DNA from: Acidobacteriota bacterium
GTDB taxonomy: Bacteria; Acidobacteriota; UBA4820; DSQY01
NCBI GenBank assembly: GCA_049967655.1
Contig: JBMFSH010000030.1
Location: 1-34,346 of the forward strand
Reading direction: 5' to 3'
DNA length: 34,346 nucleotides
A program made the position numbers and the translations under genes. Every line of letters begins with the position of its first letter. Position 1 is the stretch's first letter. The notes under the pieces were generated by a model. It did no database searches. It was given only the letters and a program-made list of their open reading frames with translations, and was not told the DNA's origin. Shown here piece by piece: positions 4,311 to 21,481 of the stretch.

Positions 4311-6038
4311 TCACGGGGCTTCAAGGGGGACGAGGCTGAAGCGCTCCACGTCCACGAGGCCCTTGTCCGTGAGCTTGAGGCTCGGAATCACCGGAAGGGC
4401 GATGAAGGCCAGAGTCATGAAGGGGGCGGGGAGCGGGCAGCCGCATTCGCGCGCCGCCTCGTGGATCTGCTGGAGGGAGCCAGCCACCTCCACCGCCCCG
4501 GCGGTGGACATGAGGCCCGCCACGGGCAGGGAGAGGGTGGCCAGAACGCGCCCCTCGCACACCACCGCGAAGCCGCCGCCCATGGTGGCCACGACCTTCG
4601 CGGCGTGCGCCATCTCGTGGGGCGAAACCCCGACCGCCACGCAGTTGTGGCTGTCGTGGCTCACCGTGCTCGCGAAGGCCCCCGTCTTCAGGCCGAAGCC
4701 GGAGACGAAGCCGAGCCCCACGTTGCCGGTGCCGCGGTGGCGCTCGATCACGGCGGCGAATTGGAGAGGCTTGGAGGCCCCCGCCTCCGCCGCGTTTCCC
4801 GTTTCGCTCCTCGTGGTGATCTGCGCCGGCTCCACGCCGATGACCCTCACGCGGCCGGAGGCGGGGAAGCGGCCCAGCCGCGCTTCAAGGTCGGGCGGCA
4901 AGTGGACCGAGGAGAGGATCCCGGCCGCCTCCCTCCGGGCGATGGGGGCCAGCAGGCGTCCCTCCTCCGCCACCTTGAGCCCGTCGTGGTAGACCGAGAG
5001 GACCTCGAAATCCCGCAGGTCCCGCAGCACCACCAGATCAGCGCGGAAGCCGGGCCCGATGCCGCCGCGGTCCCTGAAGCCGTAGAGGACGGCGGGGTTG
5101 AGCGTAACGGCGCGCAGGGCCCAGAGCGGGTCCAGCCCGGCCCTCACGGCCACCCGGAGGGCGTGGTCCAGGTGCCCCTCGCGCACCAGGTCGTCGGGAT
5201 GGCGGTCGTCGGAGGCGATACAGACCCGGTGCAGGTTGCCGGCCGTGACCGCGGGAGCCAGGGAGGCCAGGTTTTTGGCCACGGAGCCCTCGCGCAGGAG
5301 CACCCACATGCCCCTCCTGAGCTTGGCCAGGGCCTCCTCCGTGCTCCCGCACTCGTGGTCCGTCAGGATCGCCGCGTTCAGGTAGGCATCCAGGTCTCGC
5401 CCCTGAAGGCCGGGAGAGTGGCCGTCCACCATGAGTCCCCGGCGCTGGGCCGCGAGCACCTTGGCGAGAACCTCGGGAACCCCGTGAATCACTCCGGGGA
5501 AGTTCATCATCTCCGAGAGGGCCACCACGTCCGGGTAGGCCCCCATGGCGCCATCCAGGTCGGCCGCCTCCAGCGACGCGCCGGCCGTCTCCATGTGGGT
5601 CGCCGGCACGCAGGAGGGAAGGGTGAAAAAGAGGTCCACGGGAAGGCCCTCGGCGGCCCGCCTCATGTAGGCGTAGCCATGGAGCCCCAGAACGTTCACG
5701 ATCTCGTGCGGGTCGCTCACGGTGGCTCCGGTCCCGTGCGGCACCACGGCTTCGGCGAAGCCCTCCGGCGTAAGCATGGAGGATTCCACGTGGATGTGGG
5801 GGTCGGTGAAGGCCGGGCTGAGGTAGGCGCCCTTCAGGTCCACCACCTCGCGCGCCCTGCGCTCGCCGCCCCCCAGGGCGCACACCCTGCCCTCGGCCAC
5901 CGACACCGTGGTCTCCAGGATCTCTCCGGTGAAGGTGGAGACGACCCGGCCGTTGACGAAGAGGAGGTCGGCCGGCTCCTCGCCCCGGGCCACGCGAATC
6001 CGCTTGGAGAGAGACCCGATCCCCGTTTCCGCCGTCAT
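4311..6038 (-). CDS. ade: Adenine deaminase (amidohydrolase family)
   Basis: 575 aa with DPHIHVESS, SDPHEIVNV, LPSCVPAT, EMMNFPGV, DGHSP, DHEC, REGS, SDDRHP and HDSHN motifs typical of AdeC. Confidence 0.95.
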   Translation of the reverse strand: MTAETGIGSLSKRIRVARGEEPADLLFVNGRVVSTFTGEILETTVSVAEGRVCALGGGERRAREVVDLKGAYLSPAFTDPHIHVESSMLTPEGFAEAVVPHGTGATVSDPHEIVNVLGLHGYAYMRRAAEGLPVDLFFTLPSCVPATHMETAGASLEAADLDGAMGAYPDVVALSEMMNFPGVIHGVPEVLAKVLAAQRRGLMVDGHSPGLQGRDLDAYLNAAILTDHECGSTEEALAKLRRGMWVLLREGSVAKNLASLAPAVTAGNLHRVCIASDDRHPDDLVREGHLDHALRVAVRAGLDPLWALRAVTLNPAVLYGFRDRGGIGPGFRADLVVLRDLRDFEVLSVYHDGLKVAEEGRLLAPIARREAAGILSSVHLPPDLEARLGRFPASGRVRVIGVEPAQITTRSETGNAAEAGASKPLQFAAVIERHRGTGNVGLGFVSGFGLKTGAFASTVSHDSHNCVAVGVSPHEMAHAAKVVATMGGGFAVVCEGRVLATLSLPVAGLMSTAGAVEVAGSLQQIHEAARECGCPLPAPFMTLAFIALPVIPSLKLTDKGLVDVERFSLVPLEAP

Positions 6039-13695: not shown

Positions 13696-15495
13696 TCAGC
13701 GGTCTAACTCCTTGATCCTCTTGCGCATGGCGATGGCCCTCGGATCCCTCAGGCTGACGGCCTGGGCCTTGTCCAGGTAAGCTCGGCACCGGGCGAACAG
13801 CCCGTTGTTCAAGTAAAATTCTGCCAGATCCAGCAGATATTCGATCTCCCCCGGGTTCAGCTCGATGGCCCGCTGAAACTCTCGTTCGGCCATGTGCTTG
13901 GCCCGGCTGTTGGTGTTCTTCTCGTAGATCTTCGCCATCAGGTAGTGGGCCTGAGCCGAAAAGCCGTTGTGGAAGAGCGCCAGCCTCAGGTGCTGGGAGG
14001 CATCGTGCCACTGCTCCTGGGCCATGCAGTCGATGGCCCGTTGGAGGCAGAGCTGGGCCTCCTGCTGGCGGCTCTCCGAGATCTGCCTGAGTGCGGTGTC
14101 GGCCTGGGCCACCGGATTCGGCCCCACCTCCGCCTCGGCGCTCTCGGCCCTTGCCTCGGCCTTGCGGTCTTCGAGGTAGCTGTTCTGCAGGAGGAGGAGA
14201 GACTCCCCCATCTTGGCGGTCAGAAAGAAGAGCTCCTTCTGGTGCCTCTTGAACACCTCCGGATGCAGATTGGCCTGGCTGAGGCGCTCCTTCAGCGCCT
14301 CGTGGGCCTTCACCGCCTCGGCCGGCGCGCTGCCCGGGGGCACACCGAGGACCTTGTAAGGGCTGATGCCGGGGACCTTGAACGCCTGGACCAGGTTCTG
14401 GATGGCCTCCGACTGCCGCTGGATCAGGGCGGTCTCCTCATCGAGGCGAACCGCCAGGCCGGACAGCCGGAAGGGCGGCTCCACGGCGGGCTCGCTGGCG
14501 AGGAGGCCGAGCAGGAGGAGCAGGTACACCCCGCCCAGGAGCTGCCGCCCAGGCAGAATTCCCGTCTGGAGCAGGTCGGACACCGCCACCGGCTGCTGGC
14601 ACTGCTGGAGCAGGTAGCCGTGATGGGGTTGGATGGGCAGGTCCTCAGGGAGCATCTCCTCCACCCTGCCGACCTTGACGCCCGGCCTCTTGAGCACGGC
14701 CATCGCCTCCTCCGGGATCTGGTCGACCAGCTGCACCAGGAGGGCGGGGATCTCGATGGGCAGGAGTCCCTCCGGTATGACCACCGGCTCCGACCGGCAG
14801 GCCATGGGAGCGTGCAGGGGCAGGGAGGCGAGCAAGGAGAGGGTGGCCTGCTGTTTGACGGGCGCCATGGGGGCCGACCGAGCCAGCCTCTCCTCCAGCG
14901 CTGCCAGAGCGAGCTGGGGGTCCTCCCCCTGTTCGCCGCACTCCAGCCCGGCATCCAGGAGGCCCGACCGGTAGCGCTCCCAGTAGAGGGGGTGGACCAG
15001 GGTCCAGAGCCTTCCCTCACCGAACAGGAGGTGCAGTTCACCAGCCTGGGTTTGGACGGCGACCCTCCGGTGGGTGAAATCCACGAAACCCTCCCCCAGC
15101 AGCTCGATCAGGCTCATGCGGGCGGGGCCCGCTGCCTCAGCGAGACGGGCCAGGGCCTGCCGGCACGAGGACTCATCCAGGGGCCGCGGCAGAAGGACGG
15201 CCACCCCGGCGTCCCGGGCGCGGGTCTCCAGCTCCTCTCCCACTCCGGCGGCCGCCACGATGGCCACTGGAGGAAGATCGGGGAAGCGGCCCCTGGCCGT
15301 CCTCACGAAGGACAGCCCGTCCCACTGCCCGGCCAGCGTCATGTCGGCCACGATGGCCGTCGGCCTGCAGTCGGCCAGGAACTCCACGGCCTGCGCCACC
15401 GTGCCCCTCTCCTGGAGGTCCCAGGCCCTGGGAAGGGCCGCCCGGAGAATCTTGAGGAGGTCGGTATCGCGCGTGAGAACCAGAAGGGTGTTCAT
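13696..15495 (-). CDS. Multidomain protein: atypical receiver domain, DnaJ-like segment and C-terminal TPRs
   Basis: Start MNTLLVL overlaps the RuBisCO stop (ATGA). Receiver-like IVADMTL..DGLSF..LLPRP; J-like SPYKVLGV..HPE; TPR-like AQAHYLMAKIY, AEREFQRAIELNP and YLDKAQAVS. Confidence 0.78.
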   Translation of the reverse strand: MNTLLVLTRDTDLLKILRAALPRAWDLQERGTVAQAVEFLADCRPTAIVADMTLAGQWDGLSFVRTARGRFPDLPPVAIVAAAGVGEELETRARDAGVAVLLPRPLDESSCRQALARLAEAAGPARMSLIELLGEGFVDFTHRRVAVQTQAGELHLLFGEGRLWTLVHPLYWERYRSGLLDAGLECGEQGEDPQLALAALEERLARSAPMAPVKQQATLSLLASLPLHAPMACRSEPVVIPEGLLPIEIPALLVQLVDQIPEEAMAVLKRPGVKVGRVEEMLPEDLPIQPHHGYLLQQCQQPVAVSDLLQTGILPGRQLLGGVYLLLLLGLLASEPAVEPPFRLSGLAVRLDEETALIQRQSEAIQNLVQAFKVPGISPYKVLGVPPGSAPAEAVKAHEALKERLSQANLHPEVFKRHQKELFFLTAKMGESLLLLQNSYLEDRKAEARAESAEAEVGPNPVAQADTALRQISESRQQEAQLCLQRAIDCMAQEQWHDASQHLRLALFHNGFSAQAHYLMAKIYEKNTNSRAKHMAEREFQRAIELNPGEIEYLLDLAEFYLNNGLFARCRAYLDKAQAVSLRDPRAIAMRKRIKELDR

Positions 15496-16769
15496 CCTTG
15501 TCCCTTCCAGAAGGCAAGGGCCGTCCGGAGTTCGGGGGCCGACGAGGAGGCGTGTTCGAGCGTCAGTCCGGCGAGAACCGCCTCCACGGCCTGTCGGACG
15601 GCCTTCGTCCCCGCTGCGGTCCCGCCGGGATGGCCGTGGATCCCTCCGCCGAACTGGAGGATCACCTCCGTCCCGAACAGGGACATCAGAGCCGGAACGT
15701 GTCCTGGGTGCAGGCCGCCCGAGGCGATGGGCATGGCGGGCAGGATACCGCGCCAGTCCTGCCCGTCGGCCATCGCCCCATCCTCGGAGGGCCAGGCCCT
15801 CAAGGCCCGCGCCGATCGCAGCACGGCCTCCCGGCTCCCCTCCATCTTGCCCACCGCCGTTCCCACGTGAAGCTGATCGATTCCCGCGAGTCGCGCCGAG
15901 CGCGCCATCACCTCCATGGCGATCCCGTGCTCGGGTAGGCGCGTGAAGGCCGCGTGCATGGCCCTGTGCCCGTGAAGGACCAATCCCATGCCGGCTCCGC
16001 GGAGGCTCTGGACCCCCGACCAGCCGGCCGTCACCAGGTCGACCATGGCGAAGCGGCCGCCGAGGTGGGCCACGAGCCCCATCCTCCTCAGCATGACCTC
16101 CGTGGGGGCGGTGACGTTGGGGATGTACCCCTTGGCGGAGCCGGTCGCATCCTCCGCCCGCTTCGCCGCGTCGAGGCAGGCCCGGAGCCGCTCCTCGAAG
16201 GGACAGAAGCTCTGGGAGGTGAGGTTCTCGTCGTCCTTGACCACGTCGCAGCCCGCCACCATGGCCTCGTAGACCACCTGGGCCTGGGCCTTGGGATCCA
16301 GGCCGATCTTGGGCTTCACGATGGTGCCGACGAGGGGGCGGCCGGTGACGCCCAGGACCTCCCGGATACCCTGGATTCCTCTGGCCGGGCCCGGGAAGGA
16401 GGCAGCCAGGGCTTTCGGGAAGCGCACGGCCTCCAGGCGAAGCCTCCTCACCTCCTTCATCCCGAAGATGTTGCCCGCCACCGAAGAGAAGACCTGGGGC
16501 ATGTTGCCGCCCTCGAAGAGGACGGCGCCGTAGGCGATCACCACGCCCCGATCGTCCGCGGCGAGGACGCGCGCCCTCAGCCTCTCCCTCAGCTCGGGAG
16601 TGAGGGCCGCCACGTCGGTCCAGGTGCCGATGGAAGACTCGGCGGCCAGAGCATTGGCGGCCTTCTCCAGGGAGGTGCCCGCCTCCGGTTCCACGCGGAA
16701 CCGGCATACCAGGTCGTCCTCCAGCGGTTCACCGCCCAATTCCAGGTAGGGAAGCACTTCCCCGGGCAT
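15492..16769 (-). CDS. rbcL: Form III (archaeal-type) ribulose-1,5-bisphosphate carboxylase large subunit
   Basis: 425 aa with AESSIGTWT (E60/T65), GNIFGMK (N123), GTIVKPKIGL (K175/K177), KDDENL (K201/D203/E204), HGHRAMH (H294/R295), DQLHVGTAVGKMEG (H327/K334), ASGG (S379) and QFGGGIHGHP (G403/G404); spinach numbering. GGAGGAG RBS. Confidence 0.93.
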   Translation of the reverse strand: MPGEVLPYLELGGEPLEDDLVCRFRVEPEAGTSLEKAANALAAESSIGTWTDVAALTPELRERLRARVLAADDRGVVIAYGAVLFEGGNMPQVFSSVAGNIFGMKEVRRLRLEAVRFPKALAASFPGPARGIQGIREVLGVTGRPLVGTIVKPKIGLDPKAQAQVVYEAMVAGCDVVKDDENLTSQSFCPFEERLRACLDAAKRAEDATGSAKGYIPNVTAPTEVMLRRMGLVAHLGGRFAMVDLVTAGWSGVQSLRGAGMGLVLHGHRAMHAAFTRLPEHGIAMEVMARSARLAGIDQLHVGTAVGKMEGSREAVLRSARALRAWPSEDGAMADGQDWRGILPAMPIASGGLHPGHVPALMSLFGTEVILQFGGGIHGHPGGTAAGTKAVRQAVEAVLAGLTLEHASSSAPELRTALAFWKGQG

Positions 16770-16779
16770 GGCACTCCTC

Positions 16780-17646
16780 CTATGAACGTTCTCGCGCGGG
16801 GAGCGCGGGAGGGCAGAGGGCCAGGATATCCTTCACGAGCCCCCTTTCAGTAATGAAGGCCGTCACGTACTTGAGGTGCACCTTGTCGAAGGCCGGGTTC
16901 AGGACCAGGACCCCCGCCGGCGCGTCGGGCCACACCTCCGCCGGGTCCCGCTGCTCCACGGCCTCGTCGATGTGGTCCCGGACCACCTTGAGCGTGAGGG
17001 TCGCGCAGTAGGTGGGCACGTCGTACCGGCTAGCCACCACGCAGAAGATGCCCGTACCCACCTTGTTGATGAGGTATCCCGACGGGAGCACGGCGTCGGC
17101 ACCGAAGAGGAAGAGGTCGGCTCCGTCCAGCGCGACCTTGGCGGCAGCGTCCACCATGTGCCTCACCTCGATGCCCTCCCGCGCCAGCTCCGCGGCCGTG
17201 ATGCGCCCCTGAAAGCGGGGGCGGGTTTCCGTGTTCAGCACCGTGAAGCGCTTCCCCAGGCGCCAGGCCTCTTTGAGCACCGAGACCGCAGAGGAGGAGT
17301 GGCAATGCGTGAAGACCGTCATGCCGTCGCTCACCAGGTCTGCTCCGGCGCGGGCCATGGCCGCCTCGTCCCGGCGGACCTGTTCCAATAGCGCTCCGGC
17401 CCGCTCCGCCGGCCTGCCGGAGGCATCCTCCCCTTCCGCGCCGGACAGGAAGAGCTCGAGGAGATTTCTCAGCATGGGCTCGTTTGGACGGGCTTTAGCG
17501 AGAAGTTCGGCCAGGGCGCGACGGTCCGCTCCCGGCTCCACCGACAACTCCGCCGCCAGGGCTTCGAGGGCCGCCTTGGCGATGGCGTTGGCGCCCTGGA
17601 TCTCCAGGTTCCGAATGCGCGCGGCGGTGGTTTCCACGAGACCCAC
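16780..17646 (-). CDS. Ribose-1,5-bisphosphate isomerase (eIF2B alpha/beta/delta family)
   Basis: IQGA, ARP, THCHSS (catalytic Cys), NTETRP, GADA (catalytic Asp), NKVGT, NPAFD and ITERG motifs. Lies between the NMP phosphorylase and RuBisCO; GTG start with GGAGG RBS. Confidence 0.88.
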   Translation of the reverse strand: MGLVETTAARIRNLEIQGANAIAKAALEALAAELSVEPGADRRALAELLAKARPNEPMLRNLLELFLSGAEGEDASGRPAERAGALLEQVRRDEAAMARAGADLVSDGMTVFTHCHSSSAVSVLKEAWRLGKRFTVLNTETRPRFQGRITAAELAREGIEVRHMVDAAAKVALDGADLFLFGADAVLPSGYLINKVGTGIFCVVASRYDVPTYCATLTLKVVRDHIDEAVEQRDPAEVWPDAPAGVLVLNPAFDKVHLKYVTAFITERGLVKDILALCPPALPARERS

Positions 17647-17658
17647 GGGCGGTCCTCC

Positions 17659-19140
17659 CTACTGGATGACGAACATTTCCGGGTGCCGCTGCCAGTAATC
17701 CCACGCGAAGCCGAGGTCGGCCTCGTGCTCAGCGTGGATGCGAAAGAGCGGCTCGCCCTCCCGCACCGCCTCCCCCGCCTTCCTCAAGAGGTCCAACCCC
17801 GCGCCCAGATCCACGGGCGCCCCCGCGAGCTTGGCGCACTTGGCCACCAGGTGGTTGGCGACAGAGGCCACGGTGCCCGCCCGCGACGCCAGCCCCTCCC
17901 GCACGAGCGGCCCGGGGCGCACCGGTTCCCTGGCCCCCTGGGCGGCGATGAGGCGGAGCATCTTGTCGCGGGCCCTCCCGCTCCTCAGGATCTCCTCCGC
18001 CGTAGCCCTTCCCCGCCCCCCACGCACGGAGGGGTCGAACTCGATGATACGCCCGGCCAGGTCCAGGCTCTTGTCGAGCAGGTCCTTCGGGGCATCGGGA
18101 TCACACCGCAGCACCTGCATCACGTCCCGGGCCTCCAGGGCGGGGCCCACCCCCCGGCCGATGGGCTGGGAACCGTCCGTGAGCAGGGCCTCGACGTGGA
18201 GACCCATCCTGTCTCCCACGTATTCGAAGAGCTTTCTGAGCTGCACGGCCTGGGTGAAGCTGGCCACCTTCGCCGTGGGCCCCACGGGGATGTCGATGAG
18301 CACGTGGGTCGAACCGGCGGCCTTCTTCTTGGAGAGGATGGAGGCGATCATCTGCCCCGGCGCGTCCATGTTCAGCGGACGTTCCACTCCGATGATGATG
18401 TCGTCGGCTGGGGAGAGGGCGAAGGAGCCACCCCACGCGAGGCAGCCGTTCTCCTTCTCCACGATGGCCTTCAGGCGCTGAAGGCTCAGGGAGACCCCCG
18501 CCAGGGCCTCCATGGTATCCGCCGTGCCGGAGGGGGAGGTGATGGCACGGGAGGAGGTTTTCGGAATCGTGAGCCCGTAGACGGCCACGATGGGCACCAC
18601 CACCATGGTGGTCCGGTTGCCCGGGACGCCGCCGATGCAGTGCTTGTCCACCACCATCTCGCGGCCCCACTCCAGGCGCTCTCCGGTGTCGGCCATGGCC
18701 TCGGCGAGGTAGACGATCTCGTCCCGCTCCATGGCCCCCTGGGCCGTGGAGACCACGAAGGCCGTCAGCTCAACCTTCGAGTAGCGGTTCGAGACGATGT
18801 CCTGAACGATGTACCGGTAGTCCTCCCGTCTGAGCACCTCCCCGCGGATCTTCTTGCGGATGAGCTCCACCGAGCGCACTGGGTCCGGGTGTCGCACGCT
18901 CACTTCCGTGCCTTCGGGAAGGCCGAGCTTCTGGTAGGCGTACTCGCACAGGCCGATCTGGTCCGAGTCCAGGAAAGGTTCGTCCACCACGTCCAGGACC
19001 CCCACGATGCCGCGTCCGTTCGCCATGACCTCCACCTTCGAGAGGGCGCCGAACCCTTGCGCGCGGCAGAGGTCGCTGTCCCTCCGCAGGTAGAGGATGT
19101 ATTCGCGGTAGGTGTCGATCTTCAGCCTCTTGATGCGCAT
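17659..19140 (-). CDS. AMP/nucleoside-monophosphate phosphorylase (thymidine phosphorylase family with N-terminal extension)
   Basis: About 493 aa from MRIKRL. An N-terminal extra domain precedes a DeoA-like core with DKHCIGGVPGNRTT, PKTSSRAITSPSGTADTME, LSPADD, ASILSKKKAAGSTH, IDIPVGPTAK and QPIGRGVGPALEARD. Confidence 0.9.
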   Translation of the reverse strand: MRIKRLKIDTYREYILYLRRDSDLCRAQGFGALSKVEVMANGRGIVGVLDVVDEPFLDSDQIGLCEYAYQKLGLPEGTEVSVRHPDPVRSVELIRKKIRGEVLRREDYRYIVQDIVSNRYSKVELTAFVVSTAQGAMERDEIVYLAEAMADTGERLEWGREMVVDKHCIGGVPGNRTTMVVVPIVAVYGLTIPKTSSRAITSPSGTADTMEALAGVSLSLQRLKAIVEKENGCLAWGGSFALSPADDIIIGVERPLNMDAPGQMIASILSKKKAAGSTHVLIDIPVGPTAKVASFTQAVQLRKLFEYVGDRMGLHVEALLTDGSQPIGRGVGPALEARDVMQVLRCDPDAPKDLLDKSLDLAGRIIEFDPSVRGGRGRATAEEILRSGRARDKMLRLIAAQGAREPVRPGPLVREGLASRAGTVASVANHLVAKCAKLAGAPVDLGAGLDLLRKAGEAVREGEPLFRIHAEHEADLGFAWDYWQRHPEMFVIQ

Positions 19141-19186: not shown

Positions 19187-19192
19187 ATTATA
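19187..19192 (-). promoter_or_regulatory. -10 box candidate for the phosphorylase-isomerase-RuBisCO operon
   Basis: Perfect TATAAT on the - strand about 47 bp upstream of the ATG at 19140; no recognisable -35. Confidence 0.45.
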
Positions 19193-19278
19193 CACAAGCC
19201 GCCCGCCACGGCGCCCGGCTCCGGTCGGGAATCGTAAGGCACGAGACAATCACCCCCCCGCCCTATGGTTCCCTCCCC

Positions 19279-19334
19279 AATCGCTTAATCGCCTAATAGG
19301 TTAATCGCTTAATAGCCTAATAGCCTAATCACCC
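19279..19334. repeat. 8-bp tandem repeat, 7 units (AATMGSYT)
   Basis: AATCGCTT AATCGCCT AATAGGTT AATCGCTT AATAGCCT AATAGCCT AATCACCC read directly. Confidence 0.88.
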
Positions 19335-19348
19335 AGCCACCCCCCGCC

Positions 19349-21481
19349 TCACCGCCTGCCCCCCGCTTTCGTCTTCCTCCGGCCTCCTCCTTCCGCCGGC
19401 CATCCCTCCAGCAGGAAATGGGCCTCGCCCATGAGCCTGTCCACTCGCATGAGCCGCACGCAAACCTCGTCGCCCACCGTCAGAACCGCCCCGGAGTACC
19501 GCCCCCTCGCCGAGAGGCCGTCCCTGTCCACGGTGATGAAGTCTCCCTCCACCGCGTTGAAGGGACAGATGCCTTCGATCAGGTGCTCCACCAGCTCCAC
19601 CCGTGCGCCGAAGCGCGTGAACCCCAGCACCACCGCATCGAAGGTCTCCCCCAAGCGGTCCGCCAGGAAGGCCATCTGGAACCAGGCCACCACCTCCCGC
19701 TCGGCCTGGTCCGATGCCCGTTCCGTGGCGGAGCAGTGGACCGCGAGGGCCTCCAGGTCCGCCCCCGGCGCCGGAGAGCCCCAGAGCGCCCCGGCCAGGT
19801 TCCGGTGCACCAGCAGGTCCGGGTATCGGCGGATAGGGGAGGTGAAGTGGCAGTAGTGGGCAAAGCCCAGGCCGAAGTGGGGCAGCACCGCCGCGTGATA
19901 GCGCGCCTGGGCCATGGCCCGCAGGATCAGGTAGGCCACCAGCTTGGCCGCCCTGTGGCCCTCGGACTTGGCGAGCACGCGCTGGAGGGTGAAGGGGTCG
20001 GAGAGGTCACCCCGGCTCGCCTCACCCAGCCCGAGCGTGTTCAGGAGGGGCCGGAGGGCCTCCAGCTTCTCCGCGTTGGGCTCGTCGTGGACCCTGAAGA
20101 GGATGGCGATCTTCTGGCGCAGGCACTCGGCTGCGACGGCGCGGTTGCAGGCGAGCATGGCCTCCTCCACGATGCGGTGGGAGGCGAGCCGCACCGACGG
20201 GAGCACCTCCTCGACGCGCCCGGAGAGGCCGAATCGAAGCCCCGCCTCCGGCAGGTCCAGGTCCAGGGTGCCCGAGGCCAGGCGCCGCTGGAAGAGCCCG
20301 CGGGATATCTCCAGCGCCGCCCCCAACAGGCCCGCCACCTCGGGCGCGGCGCTCTCCCTTCCCTCCAGGACGGCCTGGGCCTGTTCGTAGGAGAGCCTCG
20401 CCGAGGAGCGGATGACCCCCCGGTGGAACCGCGCCAGACGCACGCGGCACTCCTCGTCCAGCTCCAGCTCCGCCGTGAGGGTCAGGCGATCTCGCTGCGG
20501 CTTCAGGGAGCACAGTCCGCTCGAGAGGGCGTGGGGCAGCATGGGATAGACGGTTCCGGGCAGGTAGGTGCTGTTCCCCCGGCGGCGGGCCTCGGTGTCG
20601 AGGGCGGAATCCGGCTTGACGTAGTGGGCCACGTCGGCGATGTGAACCCACAGCCTCCAGCCGTTGCCTGCCCGCTGCACGGAGAGGGCGTCGTCGAAAT
20701 CCTTCGCATCCTCGGGATCGATGGTGACCGTGGGAAGGGAGCGGAAGTCCTTCCGTTCCTGAAAATCCGACGGACGGGGGTCCTCCGGCAGGGTCGCGGC
20801 CTCCCGCTCGGCCGCCTCGGGGAAGTTCTGGGCAAGGCCGTACCGCGTCTCCGCCGCCAGAATGGGCGTGCGGGGATCGTCCAGAGGCCCCAGGACGCGG
20901 AGACCCGTGGAGAGGGCCGCTCCTCCATCGGACTCCAGCTCCACGCTCGCCACCATGCCTTCTGCGCCCGTGCCGCGGGGAAGCGCGATGGGTGCCCGCG
21001 AGCTGCCCATGGGCAGGAGAAGGCCGCCCTGGACGATGCCGACGACGGGCCGAACGTTTCTCTCCACGATCTCCAGGACCCTGGCCTCGGGCCTGCCGCC
21101 GGCCTCCCGGCCACGGGCACCGCGCCCGCCTCTGGGCCGCCCCGGAACTTCCTGGGCCAGCACACGGTCCCCCTCCAGGGCACCGCCCGTTTCCCTGGCC
21201 GGCACGAAGAGGTCGCCCTCGGCCCCGGATCGGTCGGGGGTGATGAAGCCGAAGCCTCCTCTGGCGGCGTGGAAGAGGCCCGTGAAGGTGCCGCCAGTTC
21301 TCGCCAGACGGTACCTCCGGTGCACCAGGGCCACCACGCTTTCCCGCAGGAGGGACTCCAGCACACCCGGGAGGGCCTTCCGCTCCCGCGGCGACAGGCC
21401 CAAGCCAGCCGCCACCTGGCTCCTGGTGCAGGGCTGGGAAGCCTCCGCGAGGAAATCGCGCACCCTCTCGCGCAGGGTCAT
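19349..21481 (-). CDS. rnr: Ribonuclease R
   Basis: N-terminal HTH, cold-shock domain GFGFI, RNB motifs TIDPEDAKDFDDAL, VHIADV, YPMLP..LS..LCSL, HFGLG and HFTSPIRRYPDL, S1 domain, basic tail. Start ATG 21481 (or GTG 21484). Confidence 0.94.
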   Translation of the reverse strand: MTLRERVRDFLAEASQPCTRSQVAAGLGLSPRERKALPGVLESLLRESVVALVHRRYRLARTGGTFTGLFHAARGGFGFITPDRSGAEGDLFVPARETGGALEGDRVLAQEVPGRPRGGRGARGREAGGRPEARVLEIVERNVRPVVGIVQGGLLLPMGSSRAPIALPRGTGAEGMVASVELESDGGAALSTGLRVLGPLDDPRTPILAAETRYGLAQNFPEAAEREAATLPEDPRPSDFQERKDFRSLPTVTIDPEDAKDFDDALSVQRAGNGWRLWVHIADVAHYVKPDSALDTEARRRGNSTYLPGTVYPMLPHALSSGLCSLKPQRDRLTLTAELELDEECRVRLARFHRGVIRSSARLSYEQAQAVLEGRESAAPEVAGLLGAALEISRGLFQRRLASGTLDLDLPEAGLRFGLSGRVEEVLPSVRLASHRIVEEAMLACNRAVAAECLRQKIAILFRVHDEPNAEKLEALRPLLNTLGLGEASRGDLSDPFTLQRVLAKSEGHRAAKLVAYLILRAMAQARYHAAVLPHFGLGFAHYCHFTSPIRRYPDLLVHRNLAGALWGSPAPGADLEALAVHCSATERASDQAEREVVAWFQMAFLADRLGETFDAVVLGFTRFGARVELVEHLIEGICPFNAVEGDFITVDRDGLSARGRYSGAVLTVGDEVCVRLMRVDRLMGEAHFLLEGWPAEGGGRRKTKAGGRR

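Follow-up and report, generated by a model that had tools for sequence, protein, structure and literature searches.

What does a ribulose-1,5-bisphosphate carboxylase (RuBisCO) of form III do in a diderm bacterium that encodes a complete pentose phosphate pathway and in whose class no phosphoribulokinase (PRK) gene was found? The question is raised by a stretch of 34,346 nucleotides (positions 1 to 34,346 of contig JBMFSH010000030.1, assembly GCA_049967655.1; the whole stretch is called the window) from an Acidobacteriota genome that probably belongs to the order UBA4820, a name denoting both a class and an order of Acidobacteria in the available part of a GTDB preprint. Three intact genes follow one another on its minus strand, with 12 bp between phosphorylase and isomerase and 10 bp between isomerase and RuBisCO:

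17659..19140, minus strand: nucleoside monophosphate (NMP) phosphorylase-like gene, 493 aa, ATG at 19140; bacterial TIGR02645 clade
16780..17646, minus strand: ribose-1,5-bisphosphate (R15P) isomerase gene, eIF2B fold, 288 aa; TIGR00511 is the best model
15492..16769, minus strand: form III RuBisCO large subunit gene, 425 aa; above the cut-off of TIGR03326

An initial annotation of this DNA had described a co-oriented phosphorylase-isomerase-RuBisCO operon of an archaeal-type nucleotide pathway, and with regard to order, orientation and spacing the coordinates and the NCBIfam and structure matches agree with it. Judging from homology and gene context, the operon probably encodes the core of the pentose bisphosphate pathway, or NMP shunt, leading from NMP through R15P, then ribulose-1,5-bisphosphate (RuBP), to 3-phosphoglycerate, and does not serve autotrophy. 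In Thermococcus kodakarensis the shunt comprises the phosphorylase TK0352, the R15P isomerase TK0185 and the RuBisCO TK2290 (PMC9700705; papers cited here by PMC number or DOI are used to the extent of their available parts).

The RuBisCO scores 509.8 bits against the NCBIfam type III model TIGR03326, above its cut-off of 497.45 bits. It was aligned to the solved structures 6hun and 8u66; the closer is 6hun, which we take to be the RuBisCO of the archaeal pathway. All residues of the carboxylase active site are present (K175, K177, K201-D203-E204, H294, R295, H327, K334, S379, G381, G403/404, E60 and N123, in what is presumably form I numbering), and the KDDE motif and all 26 checked positions are invariant in 26/26 rows from the order; residue counts for all three proteins refer to rows covering 75% of the query, broken copies having been dropped. 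A RuBisCO-like protein or an MtnA pathway is ruled out by the scores, by these residues and by a true MtnA encoded separately on contig C2 of the source genome. RuBP carboxylase activity is predicted from the residues and from an orthologue, RBC10_74 (NMB99940.1), which bears the flag 'active<0.5s-1' in Data 3 of a kinetic screen (de Pins et al. 2025, PMC12663927); of the 20 form III rows in one part of that file, no other is flagged in this way. The 400 residues shown for NMB99940.1 match P0477, which is 61% identical to the window RuBisCO and lies in the same clade (support 100/99).

For the isomerase, the R15P isomerase model TIGR00511 ranks ahead of the MtnA models, and the closest solved relatives are 3a11 and 5yfj, the former being the enzyme of the archaeal pathway; Cys133 and Asp202 are named as catalytic in the T. 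kodakarensis isomerase (both PMC6423476). Cys115 and Asp184 of the window protein align with these two residues and are kept in 21/21 rows of the order, in which all 14 checked positions are unchanged, except for 2 rows with undetermined letters at three positions. MtnA shares such Cys and Asp residues, and the residues alone do not fix the substrate.

The phosphorylase passes the TIGR02645 cut-off (582 against 435 bits). Its closest solved relatives are 4ga5/4ga4 (E 1.7e-105), of which we take 4ga5 to be the phosphorylase of the archaeal pathway; thymidine and pyrimidine nucleoside phosphorylases follow at E 2e-39 or weaker and align from residue 84-91 only, the long models aligning from residue 2, which leaves an extra N-terminal domain of about 85 aa. 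The nucleotide-binding motifs align with those of the T. kodakarensis enzyme and are invariant in 15/15 full-length rows from the order. The open reading frame list starts this gene at a GTG at 19242; the 493-aa length of relatives supports the ATG at 19140.

The metabolic setting of the host is consistent with a RuBisCO fed from nucleotides. The PRK/uridine kinase family PF00485 was found in 0/30 class genomes, in a search whose control matched in 11/14, and no other source of RuBP was thus found; with this absence and the invariant residues, a nucleotide-fed RuBisCO working without PRK, as put forward in the initial annotation, is still the best reading. In the source genome (G000), deoB, deoD, deoC, short deoA, apt, phnN, glpX and upp gave no BLAST match with E. 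coli proteins as queries, none of the 5 PfkB matches is a ribokinase, and the PNP family is represented by one gene only, an MTAP; the usual bacterial route of ribonucleoside breakdown was therefore not found. The MTAP gene is directly followed by a PfkB kinase gene (L122:6357-8167, G000:C5). As a pathway-specific nucleoside entry this pair was rejected, since the PfkB is phylum-wide (kept in 122/151 Acidobacteriota) and scores far below the cut-off of the ribose-1-phosphate (R1P) kinase model (50 against 330). The phylum tallies given here include genomes flagged as unpublished (G076, and G168 in the PfkB count), with no material change.

In the proposed scheme the phosphorylase would convert AMP, CMP or UMP and phosphate to the free base and R15P, the isomerase would convert R15P to RuBP, and the form III RuBisCO would combine RuBP with CO2 to give two 3-phosphoglycerate for lower glycolysis, the flux running in this direction. 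A heterotroph would thus recycle the ribose of its own or scavenged ribonucleotides, which is not a Calvin cycle. The NMPs may derive from RNA turnover, for which the product of the adjacent RNase R-like gene (rnr) is a possible but unproven source, or from AMP. Released adenine could be reused via the adenine deaminase encoded in the window and Hpt, in a genome without apt.

Several points weigh against this scheme. Two of the proteins fall below the cut-offs of the pathway-specific models, the isomerase with 180.3 against 314.1 (TIGR00511) and the phosphorylase with 498.5 against 535 (AMP phosphorylase model TIGR03327). No characterised member of the bacterial clade of the phosphorylase was found in the literature searched, and for this reason its substrate is read from the neighbouring genes, which suggest the reaction NMP + Pi to base + R15P. 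The assayed RuBisCO orthologue is slow, with less than 0.5 turnovers per second at 30 C (PMC12663927). The pentose phosphate pathway of the host is complete (transketolase, a transaldolase-PGI fusion, a short transaldolase, rpe, rpiB, zwf, gnd and pgl in G000), so the archaeal reason for having the shunt does not apply. The BLAST searches for breakdown genes used single E. coli proteins, which may miss diverged or unrelated enzymes. Finally, one genus-mate, G003 (98% complete; L004, G003:C27:5644-7182), has lost about 195 aa from within the phosphorylase and, from within the isomerase, about 55-70 aa that include the catalytic Cys, which suggests that the NMP route is dispensable there; its RuBisCO and the flanking genes are intact despite these deletions. 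A 214-aa isomerase of the same deleted kind is on record (P0181).

The operon is a fixed trait of the order. The source genome is 3.14 Mb in size, 99.3% complete and 0.5% contaminated, and all three genes occur in 28/29 genomes of the order (28/30 of the class), the phosphorylase in 23/23 high-quality class genomes. The two class genomes without the operon are G024 (67% complete) and G029 (78% complete, outside the order), in which the sole isomerase match is 38% identical and MtnA-like. The three genes share a contig in the same order in 24/28 genomes; in the other 4 they are split across contigs in a way compatible with that order. The arrangement rnr - operon - TPR gene - LysM gene - pgk/gap is repeated across family f1. 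The synteny survey proposed with the initial annotation thus recovered the same gene order and flanks in independent genomes, by which a chimeric contig or a CPR (Candidate Phyla Radiation) or archaeal host is ruled out; kdsB (above its NCBIfam cut-off) and an outer-membrane beta-barrel encoded within the window, together with the Acidobacteriota relatives, bear out the diderm, non-CPR host that it had supposed.

Among the best 80 of at least 448 loci with RuBisCO relatives, the top 19 (57-96% identity) are labelled Acidobacteriota, Acidobacteria, Thermoanaerobaculia or Aminicenantes, UBA4820 being named for one, and the remaining 61 (48-55%) are archaeal, bar one Thermotogae and one Krumholzibacteria contig. 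RuBisCO-family matches occur in 47/401 Acidobacteriota genomes, 26 of them in the order (at least 58% identity) and 21 elsewhere (at most 46%); no orthologous RuBisCO was found in the 375 Acidobacteriota genomes outside the order, and two of the 21 placed in a tree both fell with form I-sized representatives. In the Acidobacteriota family f9, 4/4 genomes (L109-L112) carry a RuBisCO of 42-46% identity that groups with form I-sized representatives. Two further RuBisCO relatives, P0248 and P0249 (726 and 742 aa), are longer at the N-terminus by about 320 residues, which is as much as a fused isomerase would add.

The three operon genes have a GC content of 0.68-0.70 and a GC content at third codon positions of 0.86-0.91, compared with 0.67-0.71 and 0.84-0.90 in seven neighbouring genes (EF-G left out) and 0.667 in the genome; in four named loci operon and flank GC are 0.71/0.71, 0.62/0.60, 0.59/0.52 and 0.39/0.37. 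The long residence suggested by the initial annotation is borne out by this likeness to the neighbours, by an operon GC that follows host GC from 0.39 to 0.71 and by the order-wide presence. Recent transfer of the operon is ruled out by host-matched GC and order-wide inheritance. The genes are under purifying selection, dN/dS relative to one genus-mate being 0.12, 0.16 and 0.15 for the three genes and 0.14 and 0.20 for two neighbours. Frameshifts were found in the operon of G020 and G022; those of G020 point to assembly indels, since neighbouring genes are frameshifted too.

The phosphorylase has the best resolved history. Its relatives comprise 7792 matches among 8000 scored candidates; the top ones outside the order are 56-60% identical, and the named ones are 'thymidine phosphorylase family' proteins of Gamma- and Zetaproteobacteria. 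In a 55-row tree the enzymes of the order (100/99) are sister to proteobacterial members (98/97) within a bacterial clade (100/100, branch 0.94), and archaeal and CPR-type rows fall outside it. In a 33-row subset a grouping with CPR-type rows is rejected (approximately unbiased (AU) test, p 2e-88), and a position outside the bacterial clade linked to phosphoribosyl pyrophosphate (PRPP) synthetase is weakly rejected (p 0.02; 33 rows, simpler model, group named after the tree was seen). When rooted, on one very long branch, the tree places the bacterial clade beside CPR/DPANN rows (89/86). Recruitment of the phosphorylase into the operon is the simpler story because both flanking branches carry a PRPP-synthetase-like neighbour; that the order has kept an ancestral context would be compatible with the rooted tree and is not the simpler story. 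The long phosphorylase also occurs in 7/375 other Acidobacteriota genomes; the 6/7 loci fetched have no isomerase or RuBisCO, and 5 adjoin a PRPP-synthetase-like gene. Plasmid records matching the phosphorylase number 123, and the two that were opened adjoin a ribose-phosphate diphosphokinase and/or an MBL (metallo-beta-lactamase-type) hydrolase gene.

The next matches of the isomerase beyond the order are 42-51% identical, the named ones from Peregrinibacteria and Patescibacteria, and in a 62-row tree, with rows chosen around those matches and no Thermococcales included, the order joins Peregrinibacteria/Patescibacteria and metagenome rows against Bathyarchaeia (97/92). The isomerase thus appears to group with CPR-type enzymes. 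A Krumholzibacteria contig (L090:4457-8121) carries RuBisCO, long phosphorylase and isomerase arranged much as in Bathyarchaeia; since the isomerase differs hardly at all from Bathyarchaeia rows, the contig is regarded as a recent transfer or as mis-binned.

Among named proteins, the RuBisCOs of Ammonifex thiophilus (57%) and Desulfothermobacter (55%) come closest, followed by Altiarchaeota, WOR-3 and Thermodesulfobium (50-54%). A 50-row tree, from which 27/77 rows had been dropped as long, redundant or form I-like and which is without named Thermococcales, Archaeoglobi, Thermoprotei and III-c, has a split (100/97) between DPANN/Altiarchaeota/Bathyarchaeia/Asgard and the order with the Ammonifex group and WOR-3. 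The RuBisCO of the order is a clade of its own (100/99) with a weak sister group (71/76), and a tree joining it to archaeal rows is still allowed (AU p 0.22); with these two values a clade of the order with Ammonifex, Thermodesulfobium and WOR-3 is not established. The label 'archaeal-type' therefore stands for the pathway and fails gene by gene: the protein trees proposed with it put the phosphorylase in a bacterial clade and the isomerase with CPR-type enzymes, the nearest named RuBisCOs are bacterial, and the RuBisCO sister group stays weak. An origin of the whole operon from a single archaeal or CPR donor is ruled out for the phosphorylase by the AU test, and by these trees at least that gene makes the operon a mosaic. 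Genes of different histories would have come together in it a single time, ahead of the diversification of the order, and the operon would have been inherited since.

Three other explanations of the operon were weighed. According to the first, the reversible phosphorylase would swap bases on R15P (AMP, CMP and UMP pools, with reuse of adenine and uracil) in place of missing salvage transferases, and the isomerase and RuBisCO would drain surplus R15P. The gene inventory lends it something: apt (TIGR01090) is found in 0/29 genomes of the order and is present in the operon-less G029, the uridine-kinase/PRK family is found in 0/30 class genomes, upp has no match in G000, and the equilibrium of the phosphorylase favours nucleotide synthesis. 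Such a system needs a supply of R15P, for which neither phnN nor a clear R1P kinase was found; salvage could also run through Hpt, PyrR and adenine deaminase, a single outgroup genome that is 78% complete underlies the contrast in apt, and base exchange is itself compatible with the NMP shunt. As the explanation of the operon it is unlikely, and that R15P is a central hub in the order, taking the place of apt, upp and uridine kinase in the salvage of bases, is likewise improbable.

According to the second, phosphorylase and isomerase would have some different sugar phosphate or nucleoside as substrate (a nucleotide that is modified, say, or a nucleoside substituted at 5'), and the RuBisCO would take a ribulose derivative. 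Both proteins miss the curated cut-offs and a long branch (0.94) parts the phosphorylase from the archaeal and CPR enzymes; set against this, the RuBisCO keeps every checked carboxylase residue and its orthologue carboxylates RuBP, if weakly (PMC12663927), the isomerase is nearer to R15P isomerases than to MtnA, which is present separately, and the nucleotide-binding motifs of the phosphorylase align with the T. kodakarensis enzyme. We consider this quite unlikely.

The third is a Calvin-like loop without PRK, in which ribose-5-phosphate from transketolase and transaldolase would pass through PRPP and a nucleotide to the RuBP made by the operon; the result would be net CO2 fixation or a redox sink powered by H2 and sulfate respiration. 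In addition to transketolase, two transaldolase-family genes, rpe and rpiB, the source genome has prs, hpt, gap, pgk, uptake and group 3b-like hydrogenases and dsrA (as well as pyrR, MTAP and MtnA) and a phosphofructokinase carrying the GGDD motif. We take this motif to be of the pyrophosphate type. In most loci of family f1 the distance of gap and pgk from the operon is 4 kb, and the closest named RuBisCOs, from Ammonifex, Desulfothermobacter and Thermodesulfobium, belong to a group that has form III enzymes of the Calvin cycle (PMC12999727). However, gap-pgk is in the opposite orientation to the operon, the RuBisCO sister group is weakly supported and the orthologue is slow, and the lack of apt in the order and of upp in G000 leaves the loop no cheap way to close. 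No fructose-1,6-bisphosphatase (FBPase) of class I, II or V was found in G000, nor was a class I aldolase or standard FBPase (the PF00274 search being uninformative, its control silent); the sole class II aldolase-family gene (G000:C37:2026-2850) is highly diverged (52 bits; open frame 550 aa), its family occurring in 26/30 class genomes. Transaldolase (19/30 class genomes, none in genus g5) and dsrA (above cut-off in 18/30 including G000, none in family f2) are patchy compared with the constant operon. The loop is very improbable as an explanation, and that operon, transketolase and transaldolase close a net CO2-fixing cycle is just as hard to credit; the salvage and loop readings taken jointly are still improbable. 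A Calvin cycle with form III RuBisCO is ruled out by PRK (PF00485) being found in 0/30 class genomes.

Compared with known systems, the operon is very probably the NMP shunt, a known pathway, in a new host and with a new gene make-up. It resembles the T. kodakarensis system in the three activities by homology, the solved relatives 4ga5 and 3a11, the catalytic Cys/Asp and RuBisCO residues and the lack of PRK; it differs in its diderm bacterial host with a full pentose phosphate pathway, its single tight operon, its other phosphorylase clade and the lack of an identified R1P kinase, the activities being predicted here from the genes. In CPR and DPANN genomes form III-c, III-like and II/III RuBisCOs occur with deoA and e2b2 (Jaffe et al., 10.1101/386292; Wrighton et al., PMC5113843). 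Like the CPR systems, the present one has a bacterial host and an isomerase of the same broad group, and the genes are sometimes consecutive there as well; it differs in that the host is a respiring cell of 2-4 Mb, the operon is fixed in the order and not patchy, and the phosphorylase is excluded from the CPR-type group. Thermodesulfobium and Ammonifex have form III RuBisCO with PRK (Frolov et al. 2019, as cited in PMC12999727), and so does WOR-3, reportedly without AMP phosphorylase and isomerase (PMC12542636). These non-CPR bacteria, several of them sulfate reducers, hold the nearest named RuBisCOs (52-57%), but they have PRK, whereas the UBA4820-type order has the isomerase and phosphorylase and no PRK.

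Acidobacteria are not mentioned in the available parts of 10.1101/386292 and PMC5113843. A set of 22 metagenome-assembled genomes with all three genes, among RuBisCO-bearing genomes of 14 phyla, may include non-CPR bacteria (PMC7495880). No description of the operon in Acidobacteriota was found in the full-text literature (subscription papers and bioRxiv supplements lay outside reach), and none in the available parts of PMC10103415, PMC9426519, PMC12999727 and two 2026 preprints; an Acidobacteriota survey that names UBA4820 does not mention RuBisCO. The initial annotation went too far in calling the pathway poorly described in the lineage: the supplementary information of PMC12663927 lists Acidobacteriota among form III hosts, and the orthologue RBC10_74 (NMB99940.1) was assayed there, as one row of a kinetic screen with no operon, pathway or lineage described in the part available.

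These results add an entire diderm order, most genomes of which have sulfite reductase genes, to the archaea and reduced CPR cells as bearers of the NMP shunt. As this order already owns a pentose phosphate pathway, the usual reason for the shunt fails and its benefit becomes a testable question; a RuBisCO match in one of these Acidobacteriota is no ground for taking it to be an autotroph. There is also a genomic-context clue to the substrate of the widespread, often plasmid-borne 'thymidine phosphorylase family protein' clade (TIGR02645), inside which the window phosphorylase is nested at 55-60% identity. Its other members have a PRPP-synthetase-like gene, an MBL hydrolase gene or both beside them, and neither isomerase nor RuBisCO occurs in the loci fetched, whereas the neighbours in the window would consume R15P. 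On balance the operon would seem to reveal the function of the clade as NMP phosphorylases making R15P, a proposal that we favour with some reserve.

The surroundings of the operon include the following features:

19349..21481, minus strand: RNase R-like gene (rnr; NCBIfam), upstream on the same strand, 208 bp from the operon
19187..19192, minus strand: putative -10 box with the sequence TATAAT, upstream of the phosphorylase start by 46 bases
13696..15495, minus strand: TPR protein gene, downstream, 599 aa; its ATG overlaps the RuBisCO stop (ATGA)
4314-6038 of the window: adenine deaminase gene, downstream of the operon at a distance of 9.5 kb

The -10 box suggests that the operon is likely under its own promoter: T-A-x-A-x-T is invariant in 8/8 aligned upstream regions, where the mean column identity is 40%. 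A promoter consensus scan missed it because there is no -35 box. One of three metatranscriptomes yielded two short contigs of low depth that match the genes for RuBisCO and isomerase (97% and 89% alike); they are too weak to use and may not stem from RNA. The TPR gene, whose sole family matches are TPR families, is probably co-transcribed with the operon and probably not part of the pathway; it keeps its position across family f1 and in G025, with 25-47% identity outside the genus, and was not found within 6.5 kb downstream of the operon in G026. By eye, its product has a receiver-like N-terminus, then a J-domain-like stretch, then TPRs. The rnr gene is directly upstream of the operon in most family f1 loci, is missing from that place in G012 and, in the loci fetched from family f2, was not seen adjacent to the operon. 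Between rnr and the operon, at 19279-19330, there are 6.5 imperfect 8-base repeats (AATCGCCT-like); this array, missing in more distant aligned loci, varies in copy number between genus-mates.

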